DNA of 64,000 bases, taken from a virus. Taxonomy: Duplodnaviria; Caudoviricetes. Shown piece by piece: positions 1,754-38,260 of the stretch. The stretch lies in the IMG/VR virus record IMGVR_UViG_3300031555_004524, positions 128,001 to 192,000 of that record. One strand, 5' to 3'. Within the stretch, counting starts at the first letter, position 1, and every line of letters starts with the position of its first letter. The notes beneath the pieces were generated by a model. That model saw only the letters and a list, made by a program, of their open reading frames with translations, was not told where the DNA came from and did not search any database. Made by a program: the position numbers and the translations under genes.

Positions 1754-2965
1754 TTATCTTCTAATAAACACTAAATGGAAATTTTTACTAGTATCATTTG
1801 GCTCGTATACTAATACTCCTTCATCAGAATTCAATAATTCTAATAAATTACTAAAAATATTTTTCCCATCATATCTAGCATTTACCAATTCAGAAAATTT
1901 AAAACCTTCTAGACTGTTCATATCAATTTCTTTTGATTCTTTATCTAATTCATCGTAAATTTTGTCAACTTCAGTTTTAATATCTTCTGTTATTGAATCT
2001 TCATCCATATTATAAAATACATTTCGACCAATAATAGGAGAATTACCCACCATTACAACATTTTCCATATCATCACTATTTAAAACTTTGGTTAGCAATG
2101 TATCACTATTAATCAATTCATGATATTGAAAAATCCCAGAATCTGGAGAAAGTATTCTAGATATTTTATTAATAAATTCATTAGTAATAGCAAGGGTATG
2201 CATGTTATCGCTAATAAAAATATGTTTAATATTAAGAATATTTTTTTCTCTATCATATACAAGTATATTATTGGTATATTGTAAGTATTTTAGTAGTGGT
2301 TCGTATATTCTACATAATGATGATATTTTAGCATAATCTATTGAGCTTTTATCTGAAATTCCAAATGCTGCAAGGGTTACTGGTTCTATCATAAGTGGAG
2401 ATAATAAAGCTTTTAATTCAATCCCCTGGCCATTGATAAAATCTGTGCCACTATTTATTTCTGTTATCATGCATGGATATTTCATATCCATAATTTTATC
2501 TGGAGTTTTAAATAAAATTAATTTAAAAAATACTGATGGTCTCTCATCTAACTCTCCAATTACTTCTTCAAAATCAAATTCAAGCTTAAAGCAATAATCA
2601 CCATAATCACTTGCCTTAAACGCATCTGGACAACTAATTCCATGAGATTCAAAGAATTCATCTTCTCCAGTATATATTACAGCTGGAGTATCCTCGTCTG
2701 ATGAAATTTCCACACTTTTAGCATCAGTTAAACATAAACCATTATAGTTAATCACTATATGATATTCATCACTAAATGTGATTATTATATCTTCTTTACC
2801 ATCAGGTCTACCAGATGGTCTATTAATTACAGTAAAATATTCAGAATCAGTATCTGCTAATAATTTTACATTTTCCGCATATTCTTTATATTTTGCTTCT
2901 TGTAATATGATGCCGTTTCCATCTACTAACCCAACAGCACGTACATTATAATCTTGATATATCAT
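1754..2965 (-). CDS. Hypothetical protein, acidic (403 aa)
   Basis: Long ORF, SD AAAGGAG, late-type promoter variant AACC-N6-TA at 2991-3002. Confidence 0.75.
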   Translation of the reverse strand: MIYQDYNVRAVGLVDGNGIILQEAKYKEYAENVKLLADTDSEYFTVINRPSGRPDGKEDIIITFSDEYHIVINYNGLCLTDAKSVEISSDEDTPAVIYTGEDEFFESHGISCPDAFKASDYGDYCFKLEFDFEEVIGELDERPSVFFKLILFKTPDKIMDMKYPCMITEINSGTDFINGQGIELKALLSPLMIEPVTLAAFGISDKSSIDYAKISSLCRIYEPLLKYLQYTNNILVYDREKNILNIKHIFISDNMHTLAITNEFINKISRILSPDSGIFQYHELINSDTLLTKVLNSDDMENVVMVGNSPIIGRNVFYNMDEDSITEDIKTEVDKIYDELDKESKEIDMNSLEGFKFSELVNARYDGKNIFSNLLELLNSDEGVLVYEPNDTSKNFHLVFIRR

Positions 2966-3022
2966 TATATTTCTCCTTTTAATATATTTTTATTTATAGG
3001 TTTCTTATAATGTAAAAAATGA

Positions 3023-3048
3023 GCAGTAGACTTAATTAAGTCTACTGC
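3023..3048 (-). terminator. Palindromic hairpin/terminator overlapping the stop codon
   Basis: Perfect palindrome gcagtagacttaa/ttaagtctactgc. Confidence 0.65.
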
Positions 3049-4303
3049 CATCTAAATCATTTAATACTATCAATGACTCGTTTAGGTATTTTAAATCCAC
3101 ATATACAGTTAATTCTGAAGTTTCTACATCTAAATCTTTTTCTCTTAAAATATTAATATTAAAATTTTCCCAATCTATTGTTATTGGTATTTCTGTCTGA
3201 TTATTATATACTTTAAAATTAATAAATATTGATGGAGAAATAAATGTAGATTTTGTGTATTGTATAACTTTCATAAGATCTTTATCTTCTAACAATTCTT
3301 CAAACTGAATTGTTTTCATAGACAAATCATCATCTATATATTCAGTGGATAAATATTGAGGCCAATCATGTTCATCTTTTTCAGGTGAAATAATATTAGG
3401 AAGCTTATATAATCCAGCAAAATTTAAATTAGTTTTAAACTTCTGATCTACCTTATCTTTAGAATAATAGTAGTATAATTGAGGTCCAGGTATTAATAAA
3501 GTACAATTCATATCTATATGAAATTTACTAAATAATTGATCAACTTGTTCTCCATCATCTAATGATAGTTCATCTATATTACTAATATGAGTATACATTC
3601 CTGGAACTCTAACAAAAAATTCAGAATTTCCATTAATAGTTCTCATTTTATATAATATTGGATATACAGAATGTCTATTTAAATAATCCAAATACCCAGT
3701 AATATTTTTTACTCTAGGTATATTATTTTTAAATTCCAAATCAAATCCAGCAGATTGAGCTATATTTAACATAATCTCTCTAGGAATATGAAAATCATAT
3801 GACATATTTTTACCTTGAGTAGATCCTACTCTAAATGCATATGTCATAAAATTAGCTAAATCTATCTGTTCAGCTTTTGAAGTTACTCTAACTCTAAAAG
3901 TAAAATTCATTTGAACTAATTTAGGCATCATATTTAGGAATATATTATTATCATAATCCTGTATAATACCATCCTGAAACCATCGACTTCTTCTATTTAA
4001 TACCTGTCTCCCGCCAACTCTTAAATCAACTGTATCTCTATTATACGAGTAATCAACAGTCGGTATAATTGCCACTGCAGGTAATTCTGGCTGTTTTGTT
4101 AATCTCTCTCGATTAAATAAACGAGCATCGTCAAAGATATGCTTGCCATTTATATGTACTGTTTTAAAATAATTTGTATCGAATTGTTCCAAAAACCAAT
4201 TTCTCATATACTCTATACCAATAGAATATATTTGCGTTTCACTAGGAATAGATATATAATCATGCAATTTTATAGATTGCAATTGAGACTGACTTTTAAT
4301 CAT
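3032..4303 (-). CDS. Putative virion protein, possibly tail completion/neck
   Basis: SD AAAGGAG favours the ATG at 4303. Late promoter variant CACA-N6-TA at 4327-4338. Weak resemblance (LPAVAIIP...QMNFTFRVRV) to T4 gp15-like tail terminators. Confidence 0.4.
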   Translation of the reverse strand: MIKSQSQLQSIKLHDYISIPSETQIYSIGIEYMRNWFLEQFDTNYFKTVHINGKHIFDDARLFNRERLTKQPELPAVAIIPTVDYSYNRDTVDLRVGGRQVLNRRSRWFQDGIIQDYDNNIFLNMMPKLVQMNFTFRVRVTSKAEQIDLANFMTYAFRVGSTQGKNMSYDFHIPREIMLNIAQSAGFDLEFKNNIPRVKNITGYLDYLNRHSVYPILYKMRTINGNSEFFVRVPGMYTHISNIDELSLDDGEQVDQLFSKFHIDMNCTLLIPGPQLYYYYSKDKVDQKFKTNLNFAGLYKLPNIISPEKDEHDWPQYLSTEYIDDDLSMKTIQFEELLEDKDLMKVIQYTKSTFISPSIFINFKVYNNQTEIPITIDWENFNINILREKDLDVETSELTVYVDLKYLNESLIVLNDLDGSRLN

Positions 4304-24466: not shown

Positions 24467-25249
24467 CTATAATCTTACAGGATTACTATCCACAATAGCT
24501 TTAATAAATTGAGCTCGTCTTTCTTCATATTCATTTTTCAGCTTTTGTGGTAATGATATTTCTAAGTCATCTACAGTTACCATTGGATTAAATATTGGAT
24601 TTGTGTTATTATTTAGATTATGCATACTAATTAATTCAGCAAAGCTTTCATGATTATATAATCTACCTATATTTCTGCTCTGCGATTCATATTTTGCTTT
24701 AACAACCATTTCCATATATCTATCAGTAGCTATACCTTCCAAGAATTCTATTAGTGATTCATTTTTACTTTGATTTGATTCACTATTTGCAGTTTGTGCT
24801 AATTGATAATAATATTGTTCTCTTTGCACTTGCTGCACTTCATTTAAATAAGATAATCGTTCCATATTCATATCATGCATTTCTCTTTTATAAATCTTCT
24901 GCATATTCTCCAATGAATATTGACTATCTAGAGTTTCTTGATCAACGATACCATTATTAAAATAAAATTCAGACGCTCTCACTAATCTTTTTCTAAGATT
25001 GATACCGCTGTTATATTCTCTTTTTCTCCTTTCTTCCTCTTCTTCTTGCATTCGTCTAATCTCTAATGGATCATACGATACATACCCATAACCATATCCA
25101 AAATTATATCCTCCGCTATATCCAGCACCACCAATAGGGACAGCATTTTGATATGCTGTCCCGTAATATGGCTGTGTATATTGTTGAGGTGAGTAACTCT
25201 GCTGTTGTTGTAATAGGTATGGATTTGTTATTCCTTGATTATATTGCAT
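24467..25249 (-). CDS. Hypothetical protein with Q/Y/G-rich N-terminus
   Basis: SD AAGGAGG favours the start at 25249. Confidence 0.7.
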   Translation of the reverse strand: MQYNQGITNPYLLQQQQSYSPQQYTQPYYGTAYQNAVPIGGAGYSGGYNFGYGYGYVSYDPLEIRRMQEEEEERRKREYNSGINLRKRLVRASEFYFNNGIVDQETLDSQYSLENMQKIYKREMHDMNMERLSYLNEVQQVQREQYYYQLAQTANSESNQSKNESLIEFLEGIATDRYMEMVVKAKYESQSRNIGRLYNHESFAELISMHNLNNNTNPIFNPMVTVDDLEISLPQKLKNEYEERRAQFIKAIVDSNPVRL

Positions 25250-25312
25250 GGAATTTATCCTCCTTCTATTATATAATATACTATTCAAAAATATATTCTA
25301 TAATACAAGATT

Positions 25313-26733: not shown

Positions 26734-27411
26734 TCAACTCCTTCCTATTAATTTAAAATATTTTTCAAAATCAATATTATCTGAATATACAGATTTGAAT
26801 AAATAATCCCGTTTACAATCCAATGCAACTTTTTTACCTATTAATAGCTGATCTCTTGTAAATCGGTCTATATCACTATTACATTTCATAAGAAACATAG
26901 CAAAAGCCATATCTAAATTAATATGATTATCTCGCTGAAAATCATTCATAAATTTTTGAACATGGCGTTTATTATTACAATCTTTATGTCCATCTACATG
27001 GTAAAATCTAACGTTAATATTATAATACGTTATAATCTTTATACAATCTAAAAATATAGATTGATTGGCAACTTCCATTCCCGATGATGAATACATTTTT
27101 CCACTGCGTACATTTTTTATCCAATTTTTAATCCAATCATTTAATCCATTTACTGTAATTAATGAATCTGAAAATATATTTATATTTTTAACCTGTGGAA
27201 AATTTGCTGCATATAATAATGCCATTTTTATAGCATATACTTCTCCTTCATTATTAGTAGAATTTAATAAGCATTTAGATAAAGCATGACATGGTTCATT
27301 TCCATAATATGCTATATATCCAGGTGCAGAAAATATTCCATCTACTGAAGCATCTGTAAATATATTCAAAGTATCATAGGTAAATACCATACTTTTTTCT
27401 AATATTGGCAT
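26734..27411 (-). CDS. rnhA: Ribonuclease HI
   Basis: IFTDAS, STNNEGE, IFSDS, W-x-x-x-W, VANQ, HVDGH, NSDID. Confidence 0.9.
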   Translation of the reverse strand: MPILEKSMVFTYDTLNIFTDASVDGIFSAPGYIAYYGNEPCHALSKCLLNSTNNEGEVYAIKMALLYAANFPQVKNINIFSDSLITVNGLNDWIKNWIKNVRSGKMYSSSGMEVANQSIFLDCIKIITYYNINVRFYHVDGHKDCNNKRHVQKFMNDFQRDNHINLDMAFAMFLMKCNSDIDRFTRDQLLIGKKVALDCKRDYLFKSVYSDNIDFEKYFKLIGRS

Positions 27412-28016: not shown

Positions 28017-28089
28017 AATGCGTTGCTCTCCTTTTAGACTATAGAATTATTTTATTATTAAGATATTATCATAAAAATAATATATAACT

Positions 28090-28229
28090 AAAACACAAAA
28101 TAACCAGGATAGAAATTAATCTATCCTGGTTATTGTATATAATAATATGAAGGATTATACCAATATCAAACATGGAATATATGATATCAGAAGGCAATAA
28201 TTTTTGATGTTTGATATATGCAGCTTCAT
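28090..28229 (-). ncRNA. Array sRNA unit 1 (predicted)
   Basis: AACA-N6-TA at 28229-28240; long internal stem; terminator hairpin 28099-28134. Confidence 0.6.
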
Positions 28230-28251
28230 AATATTATGTTGTATAAAATAA

Positions 28252-28366
28252 TTGGAGATGTCCCTCTAGTAATAAAGTACTAGAGGGTTACAGTCATGAA
28301 AAAAAAATCATTTTTACTACCTACATATATAATTTGAAGTTATACCATGTAAATACTATCCGTCCT
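28252..28366 (-). ncRNA. Array sRNA unit 2 (predicted)
   Basis: AACA-N6-TA at 28366-28377; stem with G-U pairs on the minus strand; 3' hairpin 28262-28287. Confidence 0.6.
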
Positions 28367-28401
28367 ACTATAATGTTATTATATTTATTAAAAAATATTT
28401 T

Positions 28402-28527
28402 GTTAGGAAGTCACCTCTAGCAAAATATATGCTAGAGGTAAAACAAAAGGTATTGGGTCATAAAATGATAAAAAAGATATACAAAAATGATAGAAATCGG
28501 CGAGTGAGCGTCGATAATAATCATTCT
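28402..28527 (-). ncRNA. Array sRNA unit 3 (predicted)
   Basis: AACA-N6-TA at 28527-28538; 5' stem at +1; 3' hairpin 28413-28439. Confidence 0.6.
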
Positions 28528-28557
28528 AATTAATTGTTTATAATAGTGTAATAAAAT

Positions 28558-28750
28558 ACATGAGAAATCCCAGTAGTATTACACTACTGGGAAACTCATT
28601 AATCAAGGAAATTCTGCCAAAATTAAAACTGATTAACATGAAGATTTTAAAAAATGTCATTTTCAGGAGAAATAAAAATGATACTCTTTGCTATTTTATA
28701 AATCCATCTTACATATTATAGCTAGTAATAGTATATATCATACTATACTT
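28558..28750 (-). ncRNA. Array sRNA unit 4 (predicted)
   Basis: AACA-N6-TA at 28750-28761; 5' stem at +1; AUUUCUCCUG loop; 3' hairpin 28568-28592. Confidence 0.6.
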
Positions 28751-28779
28751 ATATTATTGTTACATATAATGTAATTTTT

Positions 28780-28911
28780 TACAAAAATAATCCCTAGTGG
28801 GCACGCAACCACTAGGGATTATTTGTTGTTTCCGTTGCACGCGTTATGGCAACAATCATGGAATTTTTAAATGATTAAATACACAAAAGAGAGGATTCAA
28901 AAATGAACCCT
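28780..28911 (-). ncRNA. Array sRNA unit 5 (predicted)
   Basis: AACA-N6-TA at 28911-28922; 5' stem AGGGUUCA/UGAAUCCU; terminator 28786-28823 with U-tract. Confidence 0.62.
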
Positions 28912-28948
28912 ACTATATTGTTATTTGTTTAAAATTATATAAAGTTTT

Positions 28949-29329
28949 TTATTTTCGAGCTACTTTATATTTTTCTGATAATGCAGCAATATCTACTTTA
29001 TGTATGCATGATTCATCTACAACAATAACAATTTCATCTTCTTCAAAAATACCATAATGCTCAATAACGTTATCAATAGCTTCTTCTATTGATATTATTT
29101 TTTGATCATTAATATATTTTTCTAAATTGTTAGAGTATTCAATTAAACATGGGGAATATTCATCTTCTCTATGAATATCTACTTTATCTACTGTATATCC
29201 CATAATCTGTTCTTGGTATTCAGTAATTTTTTCTAATTCATTAAATGCTATATGGTTTTTTGTTAATCCACGAATACCTAAACCATAATTAGCATCTGAT
29301 TCTAATAAAAAATTTATTGTGTTTGACAT
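28949..29329 (-). CDS. Hypothetical acidic protein
   Basis: SD AAAGGAGG. Confidence 0.7.
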   Translation of the reverse strand: MSNTINFLLESDANYGLGIRGLTKNHIAFNELEKITEYQEQIMGYTVDKVDIHREDEYSPCLIEYSNNLEKYINDQKIISIEEAIDNVIEHYGIFEEDEIVIVVDESCIHKVDIAALSEKYKVARK

Positions 29330-29358: not shown

Positions 29359-30195
29359 CTAATGTTTATTTTTGTACTCATTAGAGGACTTTTCAGGTAG
29401 AGAAGCATATGATTTCTGTTTTAATTCAGAAATTCTTCTACATAGGACAGTCTCTATATCTTGCATTGTAGGTAAATTGTATAGGCCTCCCCCTGAGTCT
29501 CCAGGAAGCTGAATGGCTAATGGATTCATTTCTAATATAGAAAGCTCATACTTTTCATCAAACGTTAAAGTACGTTGTTTCATCTTTTCAATTTTATCCA
29601 TTACTTCCATAGGTATCCATTCTCCATACATTTCTATGAATCCTTCATAGTTACCCATCACTTTATCTAACGGAATAAATAGGTATTGTTGGTGAACTAA
29701 TTCGTGCACTGTTTCTGCTAATGGTATTATTCCTACTAATAAATAGTAATGAATATACATTACTTCTTTAGCTACTAATTCAACTTCAATACTTTCATGA
29801 TAGAATAATCTCTTTTCTATTACGGTAACTACTATATCATGTAGAGTAAAAGGAGAATGATGTAATTCTATTCTAATTTTGAAAGTATCTGTATTAGTAA
29901 CATTTTTTAAAAATGCACATTTATCCATACTCATATTTTCTCTTAAATAGTTCACAAATCGACGATATTCCCTAGAGCTCCGTATTACTCGTTTAATATC
30001 TTCGACATATTTTTTATAATCTTTTTCTTCATATATATCATAATCCTGCGTGTCATACTCAGGAAGATTATTTAATACTATTATATCGTTATAATACGTA
30101 TTATTTTGTAATTGATTGTTTTTGGGAATTTCAGGTAGATATGATTTACTATCTTCGATTTTAGTAAATAACCTGACAAGATTTTTATCACTCAA
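29359..30195 (-). CDS. His-rich HNH-like fold protein (paralog of 18567-19277), TTG start
   Basis: C...IELHH...H...LAETVHELVH; SD GGAGGG; late promoter at 30223-30234. Confidence 0.6.
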   Translation of the reverse strand: MSDKNLVRLFTKIEDSKSYLPEIPKNNQLQNNTYYNDIIVLNNLPEYDTQDYDIYEEKDYKKYVEDIKRVIRSSREYRRFVNYLRENMSMDKCAFLKNVTNTDTFKIRIELHHSPFTLHDIVVTVIEKRLFYHESIEVELVAKEVMYIHYYLLVGIIPLAETVHELVHQQYLFIPLDKVMGNYEGFIEMYGEWIPMEVMDKIEKMKQRTLTFDEKYELSILEMNPLAIQLPGDSGGGLYNLPTMQDIETVLCRRISELKQKSYASLPEKSSNEYKNKH

Positions 30196-32179: not shown

Positions 32180-32401
32180 GACATGAGATATCCCAGTATA
32201 GATTTACTCTATACTGGGTTTCCGTTCTATCTCGTTTTCTACAACTGAAGTCCTGTACTACAAAATAGTTACAAAAATTAGTCCTTAGAATCTCATAAAT
32301 TCAAAACAAAAAAGAAAGAAAAATGAAAATCTATGACATACACACTGAACGAATTATTTTTAGCAAAATAATTATAACTACCACTTTATAATTATATGCT
32401 T
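32180..32401 (-). ncRNA. Predicted ~220-nt sRNA
   Basis: AACA-N6-TA at 32401-32412; 5' hairpin at +1; pyrimidine loop; 3' hairpin 32192-32218; no ORF. Confidence 0.6.
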
Positions 32402-37699: not shown

Positions 37700-38260
37700 T
37701 TAATTATGAATCATCCATTCAATATCAATACTTTCAAATAATTCTGGATGGATCATTTTCAAGTATATCAAAGTGTTATAATAAGTAGATTTAAATACGC
37801 TGCAAGATACTGCATGATAATTGGAATCCTTTTCTTGTTTATCTATTAAAAATTCCTCTTTTTGTACAATGGTATAATACAAAGATAAAATATCAAATTC
37901 CGAATTATTGAAATCTATAGATTCATCTGATAATATTTTAAATATAATATCCTCTGCATCATAATTAAAATATAAAGGGTGATAAAAAATTCCATATGAT
38001 TTAATTCTCTTAATTTGTTCGCTTATAATTTTTGATCGTATTGATATACTATCCATTTTTTCATCTTCAATAGGATTAATAGATATATATCCACCATTTA
38101 ATCCAGCTTGTATTATTTCAATCGATAAGTTATTAATTCCTTTCGCATTATCTTTTAATAACTCTTTACCTTTCACTTCATAGTCATTAGTTATTTTTCT
38201 TAATCTTTTTGCAATATCGATCAAAGTTTTAATATTACTTATATCACTTTTCGTATTCAT
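37700..38260 (-). CDS. Hypothetical early protein
   Basis: SD GAAGGAG favours the start at 38260; early motifs at 38321-38328 and 38339-38346. Confidence 0.7.
   Translation of the reverse strand: MNTKSDISNIKTLIDIAKRLRKITNDYEVKGKELLKDNAKGINNLSIEIIQAGLNGGYISINPIEDEKMDSISIRSKIISEQIKRIKSYGIFYHPLYFNYDAEDIIFKILSDESIDFNNSEFDILSLYYTIVQKEEFLIDKQEKDSNYHAVSCSVFKSTYYNTLIYLKMIHPELFESIDIEWMIHN

Follow-up and report, generated by a model that had tools for sequence, protein, structure and literature searches.

What does an AR9/PBS1-like jumbo phage encode in a stretch of some 850 bp that holds no long open reading frame? The question is raised by positions 28,090 to 28,925 of the window, by which we mean the whole 64,000-nucleotide stretch of DNA analysed here, part of a 248,149-bp virus record with 29% GC; the window itself encodes RNA polymerase beta subunits. 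An earlier note on this DNA had read the gap as a dedicated cluster of five late small-RNA genes, each with its own promoter, body and 3' hairpin. That interpretation, with the RNAs taken to be non-coding, remains the best one, supported by a design that is kept at the syntenic site in relatives without conservation of sequence, by gain and loss of precisely one unit, by compensatory changes in hairpins and by a transcription start mapped in AR9, although expression of the five RNAs themselves has not been shown. The features to which the argument refers are as follows.

28785..28922, minus strand: unit 1, with late promoter 28922-28911, 5' stem 28911-28892 and 3' hairpin 28824-28785
28905-28903 and about 28894-28889, minus strand: antisense elements of unit 1, an anti-AUG and an anti-SD respectively
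28555..28761, minus strand: unit 2, with late promoter 28761-28750 and 3' hairpin 28604-28555
about 28686-28665, minus strand: complement, in unit 2, of an SD, 8 nt and AUG, the anti-SD being displayed in a hairpin loop
28411..28538, minus strand: unit 3, with late promoter 28538-28527, a 5' stem and 3' hairpin 28441-28411
28479-28460, minus strand: segment that pairs with leaders, within the 45-nt, unpaired, pyrimidine-rich linker of unit 3
28257..28377, minus strand: unit 4, with late promoter 28377-28366 and 3' hairpin 28295-28257
28306-28292, minus strand: anti-AUG segment of unit 4, after which comes an anti-SD that overlaps the 3' hairpin
28099..28240, minus strand: unit 5, with late promoter 28240-28229, a long 5' stem with a loop of 33 nt, and 3' hairpin 28134-28099 with a U tail
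28077..28085, minus strand: early-promoter-like motif just past the array and before the next gene, recurring after the arrays of relatives; its early identity is inferred from AR9
26734..27411, minus strand: RNase H gene, downstream neighbour of the array site in most relatives
28949..29329, minus strand: gene for a 126-aa protein of unknown function; the array site lies immediately downstream of its homologues
29359..30195, minus strand: conserved gene for a 278-aa protein (phrog_12252), assigned by homology to AR9 g242, weakly HNH-like, used as the synteny anchor

Five copies of AACA-N6-TA occur in the gap, all on the minus strand with none on the plus strand, and they place the +1 positions of units 1-5 at 28911, 28750, 28527, 28366 and 28229, just where the earlier note had put them. 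Two lines of evidence identify the motif as a genuine promoter signal in this genome: its 74 intergenic copies lie mostly 15-80 nt upstream of a gene, and it is identical with the late promoter consensus mapped in AR9, AACA-(6N)-TA/G (PMC5312081). Dinucleotide shuffles of the gap contained 0.70 motifs on average and yielded five or more with P=0.0002. A genome-wide scan found no comparable run of promoter units elsewhere. Orphan late promoters, each with a hairpin or a +1 stem behind it, do occur singly at window positions 32401 (minus) and 39837 (plus) and, elsewhere in the genome (G000), at 119043 (minus), 47015 (plus), 25371 (minus), 110492 (minus) and 107377 (plus); similar small RNAs may therefore be scattered beyond the array.

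From +1 to the end of the hairpin the units measure 127, 196, 117, 110 and 131 nt. All five close with a strong 3' hairpin (-17 to -23 kcal/mol), as the earlier note had described, and its observation that four units begin with a stem at +1 is borne out by the pairing probability of nucleotides 1-8, which is 0.96, 0.85, 0.91, 0.63 and 0.83 in units 1-5, unit 4 being the exception. Its suggestion that the minus strand is favoured in units 2 and 5 is only half sustained; when units are folded whole, the minus strand comes out ahead in units 2 and 4, and in unit 5 the comparison goes the other way (-36.9 vs -38.1). A U tail clearly follows the hairpin in units 1, 2 and 5 and is displaced in units 3 and 4, whose 3' ends are less certain because no U-run directly follows the hairpin. 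In those two units, similar C-rich tails lie between hairpin and U-run (28410-28395 in unit 3 and 28256-28245 in unit 4), and unit A of relative L015 has a tail resembling them.

None of the familiar short-RNA arrangements considered here accounts for this organization. No repeat family spans the units, and the identical direct repeats between spacers that define a CRISPR array are absent, as had been noted from the outset. TIGR and type III antitoxin arrays were rejected on the same lack of repeats and on start-to-start spacings of 161, 223, 161 and 137 nt rather than a fixed short period. The units are not tRNA genes, ARAGORN having returned no tRNA, and the negative Rfam result that had been anticipated was obtained; covariance-model searches of the units gave no match, which excludes a tRNA cluster or Rfam family, and blastn of the array region against phage records also gave none. 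An LhrC-type multicopy family would require homologous copies with a UCCC motif, and these are lacking, as are a repeat family and an Rfam match. A type I antitoxin can likewise be set aside; the opposite-strand frames encode only 2-13 aa and are unrelated between phages, and there is no conserved hydrophobic toxin ORF. Possession of its own promoter in an ORF-free region is a criterion of a trans-acting base-pairing sRNA, and the units meet it.

The genes beside the array say little about its function. Cultured homologues of the 278-aa anchor gene are confined to AR9/PBS1, phiR1-37, LPJP1 and Staphylococcus jumbo phages, and the resemblance of its product to HNH endonucleases is weak (Atlas 0.94; VIA Z 4.2-4.3). 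The protein (window 29359-30195) has invariant His/Cys residues, and each cultured AR9-like genome has two paralogous places for it. Family and fold searches with the 126-aa protein found no match (best Z 4.2), and neither of these two neighbours gave a clue to RNA binding. Elsewhere the phage encodes a 267-aa Spo0A-like protein (L049:1474-2277, minus; PF08769, E 1.5e-26), also present in G003, and a dUTPase (L049:560-1126, minus). The latter suggests that this phage has thymine DNA; it nonetheless shares its promoter consensus with AR9, whose polymerase reportedly reads the late-promoter consensus through template uracils (10.1101/2021.08.30.458274). Judged from these sequences, the Spo0A C-terminal domain and the relatives of the dUTPase in Clostridia point to a spore-forming member of the Bacillota as the putative host; a scan of GTDB with the Spo0A-like protein found no relative, and the host has not been identified.

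Searches of metagenomes and IMG/VR for the two genes upstream of the array recovered the matching site from many relatives, at anchor-protein identities of 45-73%. About 12 related phage lineages carry between one and three units of the same design and unrelated sequence at the syntenic site: three in L015/L017 and L054/L055; two in L016/L018, L034/L035 and L037/L038; and one in L019-L024, L025, L041, L032/L033, L039/L040, L001, L068, L056, L052 and L061. No unit was found at the site in L013, L043 or L184, and in G013 and G014 the site lacks a late unit, so that these two genomes supply no independent test. A few of the relatives' units use a promoter variant with one base changed, and the promoter of L052 is uncertain. 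The 5' stem is a property of the units and not of late transcripts at large: across 17 units the first eight nucleotides are paired with a mean probability of 0.82, compared with 0.36 across 62 starts of late mRNAs (p=1.4e-7). Other contents of the site vary too. More distant relatives (L059, L064-L066 and L082) have, by eye, a tRNA-like gene directly after the anchor gene; an additional gene (L186:1940-2330) occupies the array site in L186 and is missing from L184; and G013 (L155, reverse strand 2737-3275) has between its anchor genes a hairpin-rich stretch of 540 bp with early-type motifs and no late promoters.

Closely related strains indicate how the units change. A single whole unit distinguishes L015 from L016, and the break lies between the tail of one hairpin and the promoter of the following unit. 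In the units they share, the bodies are identical and differences are restricted to hairpins and tails, including a paired change from G-C to A-U in the last hairpin, read from the alignment. On this comparison of sequences units appear to be gained and lost singly at the site, which is shown for this one strain pair; that each unit is self-contained would explain why. In L019, L025 and L041, an 11-nt anti-SD-like linker (L019:5450-5460) is invariant and flanked by stems of differing sequence.

The only expression evidence comes from AR9, and it concerns an analogue and not these five RNAs. There, the anchor homologue g242 is followed by an ORF-free gap of 560 bp, in which dRNA-seq mapped a late start at 207979 that was filed under 'tRNA' (PMC5312081 Table S3). 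The AR9 tRNA sits 900 bp beyond 207979 and has a start site of its own. The transcript from 207979 (L029:4623-4890) is free of ORFs and structured (z -2.68), is at least 99% conserved in seven PBS1-type records, and includes an anti-AUG and an anti-SD segment. It resembles our units in promoter class, in being ORF-free and structured, and in lying directly after the anchor homologue, and differs in being one longer RNA; PMC5312081 did not recognize it as a separate RNA. Since no sequence similarity has been shown, we regard it as a positional analogue only.

What the RNAs might do is suggested by the complements of their bodies. The order anti-AUG, 8 nt, anti-SD recurs in units 1, 2 and 4 and in unit B of L037, while unit C of L054 has the same order with a six-nucleotide spacer; in unit 1 the anti-AUG falls within the 5' stem. 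We trained an SD model on the phage's own genes and scored the reverse complements of the unit bodies against dinucleotide shuffles. In the window these score above shuffles as SD plus AUG (Fisher p=0.004). Because the idea of the motif arose from the window, the relatives provide the fair test, and the excess is present there also (p=0.03 for the 14 first seen, p=0.02 for the six found later, p=0.005 for all). The antisense strand outscores the transcribed strand (p=0.001), from which we infer that the units are not mRNAs. Composition explains much of the signal; when only the exposed letters are shuffled, leader pairing retains a modest Stouffer z of -2.3, and units 15B, 15C, 32A and 41A have no anti-AUG. 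A second property of base-pairing sRNAs, an exposed seed complementary to initiation regions, is thus present statistically in the window and its relatives, with a modest effect size.

Specific targets proved harder to find. The energy model behind the duplex scores is a simplified one, and the gene starts come from automatic calling. With whole units, the best RNAduplex matches to leaders of the same genome were near shuffle level, and for units 1, 2, 4 and 5 no own-genome leader beat the nulls. No general preference for own-genome leaders emerged over all units, the scaled rank averaging 0.43 against 0.5 and the cognate rank 3.9-4.1 against 4; nor did one emerge in an automatically compiled genome-wide set of units. 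An exact search of GTDB with the complement of unit 2 produced two hits, in Trichodesmium and at the start of an HTH gene in Ruminococcaceae, both judged to be chance; the latter showed no pairing beyond the pattern searched. A 13-nt SD context present in exactly three copies in the phage's genome (G000), all in leaders (39451, 107265 on the minus strand and 235584 on the plus strand), matches the linker of unit 1, and as a set of targets it was no better than the nulls.

Unit 3 is the exception. With G-U pairs allowed, its segment 28479-28460 pairs without interruption with the leaders of a UvsX-like recombinase (20 nt; G000 84067-85323) and a DnaB-like helicase (18 nt; G000 115989-117833), both of whose genes follow late promoters. 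We took six related genomes and tested each genome's own unit against its own orthologue. The helicase leader ranked first of 77 orthologue groups for own-unit pairing under both energy variants (z -3.25 and -3.62), vs a mean z of about -0.09 for foreign units, with own-unit percentiles of 0.04, 0.03, 0.04, 0.12, 0.01 and 0.49, the last being the negative G002. Besides the discovery genome, four of five genomes have a helicase leader matched by their own unit, and the result stands without that genome (p=0.002 and 0.0007). A stricter test, ranking the own unit among all 26 units, gave p=0.013-0.027 uncorrected; the helicase lead was nominated but is post hoc, and the strict test would not survive correction over 75 groups. 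In AR9, helicase pairing was negative (percentile 0.18/0.51). The recombinase was rejected as a conserved target, having failed to replicate in other genomes (p 0.24-0.36). Among relatives, unit B of L054 is complementary to a spacer plus AUG common to six genes of its own genome (the SD-spacer-ATG genes at 37917, 39136, 39783, 46905, 104445 and 142117 of G001), and the L056 unit is complementary to two of 38 own leaders. Together with the helicase result, these matches make self-targeting plausible for some units; the remainder are open. As a separate observation, the L052 unit pairs at -33 kcal/mol with the leader of its own orthologue (G003:78144-78911) of the gene at window 24467-25288, better than with every foreign leader; that orthologue group came second in one energy variant and is a second candidate for a conserved target.

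The mechanism we propose, where the earlier note had offered none, is inferred from sequence and has not been observed. Once the phage non-virion RNA polymerase had been made, each late promoter would yield its own RNA of 110-200 nt, in which a protective 5' stem is followed by a pyrimidine-rich loop or linker left exposed and then by the 3' hairpin. The exposed parts would pair in trans with the SD/AUG region of mRNAs and so block initiation. Among the phage's own mRNAs the leading candidate target would be that of the DnaB-like helicase, followed, in the case of unit 3, by that of the UvsX-like recombinase, and late transcription might thereby damp replication genes; support for this part is weak. 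Our confidence differs between the parts. That the units are real late small RNAs we hold with high confidence, transcription being inferred; that they act by pairing with initiation regions is probable, though repression by base pairing is again an inference; and that they are late trans-acting antisense RNAs masking ribosome-binding sites, with at least some targets among phage mRNAs, is an evenly balanced proposition, the targets being unproven. More tentatively still, the array could belong to a modular, swappable RNA-silencing layer in AR9-like jumbo phages, requiring no dedicated protein and serving the switch from replication to morphogenesis. It is no more than possible, too, that each late sRNA gene in such a layer is re-matched by co-evolution to the ribosome-binding sites of its own phage's replication genes, the helicase first, and possibly of host genes.

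The same RNAs and the same mechanism might instead be directed mainly at host mRNAs, for example those for defence, sporulation or stress, with the turnover of units tracking the host. This is unlikely, but it is fed by the enrichment for anti-SD/AUG sequences when four of the five units have no own-genome match above the null, by the speed at which units turn over, and by the host target predicted for misc_4, an intergenic RNA of phiR1-37 (PMC12197685); set against it, the only GTDB matches to the unit 2 complement read as chance. Less probable again is that the RNAs work as sponges or protein-binding decoys, soaking up RNA-binding proteins or sRNAs of the host, toxins or nucleases, their pyrimidine bias being incidental. 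That structure is kept while sequence is not would suit such a role, as would the four units without an anti-AUG and the share of pairing due to composition. A single protein partner, however, predicts a common motif, and the five units share none; unrelated units, moreover, repeatedly show anti-AUG and anti-SD correctly ordered and spaced.

Could the units be non-functional promoter-terminator cassettes left by deleted genes at an insertion hot spot? The site is certainly variable, as the extra gene of L186 and the tRNA-like genes of distant relatives attest, but leftovers should carry SD sequences on the promoter strand, whereas the signal is on the opposite strand; their stems at +1 are atypical of mRNA leaders, and bodies are better conserved than hairpins. 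We consider this very doubtful. Scarcely more can be said for a functional plus strand bearing micro-ORFs with SD and ATG starts, the hairpins being bidirectional terminators: such starts do open plus-strand frames in units 1, 2 and 4 (those of units 2 and 4 encode 7 and 13 aa) and one early-type octamer lies on that strand at 28750, but the octamer merely complements the unit 2 promoter, the minus strand carries every one of the five late promoters as well as the +1 stems, and the equivalent frames of relatives are unrelated and can measure as little as 2 aa. A role as guide or cofactor of the HNH-like neighbour, or as a primer for replication on which the neighbouring RNase H acts, draws on a conserved linkage to both genes and the weak HNH resemblance of the anchor protein, and is hardly credible when the units share no scaffold or repeat, L013 and L043 have both genes and no unit, the L015 clade has its array without an adjacent RNase H, and the rest of the genome offers no long DNA match.

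The reading we prefer, of late antisense RNAs acting in trans to mask ribosome-binding sites, would bear on a phage group in which such regulation has had little attention. Regulators of the base-pairing kind are familiar from bacteria and temperate phages, yet they have hardly been characterized in lytic jumbo phages, where the late switch is regarded as purely transcriptional. A family-wide site with zero to five exchangeable sRNA genes suggests a post-transcriptional layer with fast turnover. AR9/PBS1 is cultured, its RNA-seq is public and an overlooked late RNA lies at the matching position, making the idea directly testable; the pairing of unit 3 with the helicase leader can be tested by reporter fusions in Bacillus subtilis.

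CRISPR, TIGR and type III antitoxin arrays likewise set variable short RNA units in a row near an HNH-like gene, but produce one processed repeat transcript, whereas the present units lack repeats and come each with a promoter and a hairpin of their own. Non-coding RNAs are on record for other jumbo phages, namely misc_4 of phiR1-37 (PMC4848604) and the sRNAs of phiKZ and 201phi2-1 (PMC11512511, PMC10914365). Those phages have two RNA polymerases, as this one does, and the functions of the RNAs are unknown; in the portions of these sources available to us, the RNAs are single, mostly derived from 5' UTRs or cis-antisense, and neither a tandem array nor an anti-RBS mechanism is described. Our survey of the literature, of incomplete coverage, found no description of a tandem array of independently promoted phage sRNA genes. 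P1 c4 is a phage regulatory RNA of the initiation-region type. Lambda PreS (10.1101/2024.10.31.621285) and lambda OOP and others (review PMC12197685) are also phage regulatory RNAs on initiation regions. PreS, OOP and c4 are phage-encoded and tune replication or developmental genes by base pairing, as proposed here; unlike the array, they are single genes of temperate phages with host-polymerase promoters, often Hfq-dependent or cis-encoded. LhrC1-5 of Listeria monocytogenes are RNAs of about 110 nt with a stem-loop, a single-stranded linker and a terminator; through exposed CU-rich sites they pair with the SD region and, with no requirement for Hfq, prevent translation (PMC4132741). Judged from sequence, our units resemble them in layout, the 3' hairpins being putative terminators, and in exposed CU-rich anti-SD sites, but LhrC copies are homologous and share UCCC, whereas the units are unrelated in sequence, are driven by promoters of the phage polymerase and turn over at the level of strains. 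By analogy, and with the mechanism inferred, the array would work in the manner of the CU-rich anti-SD sRNAs of low-GC Gram-positives that LhrC represents, without being a member of that family.
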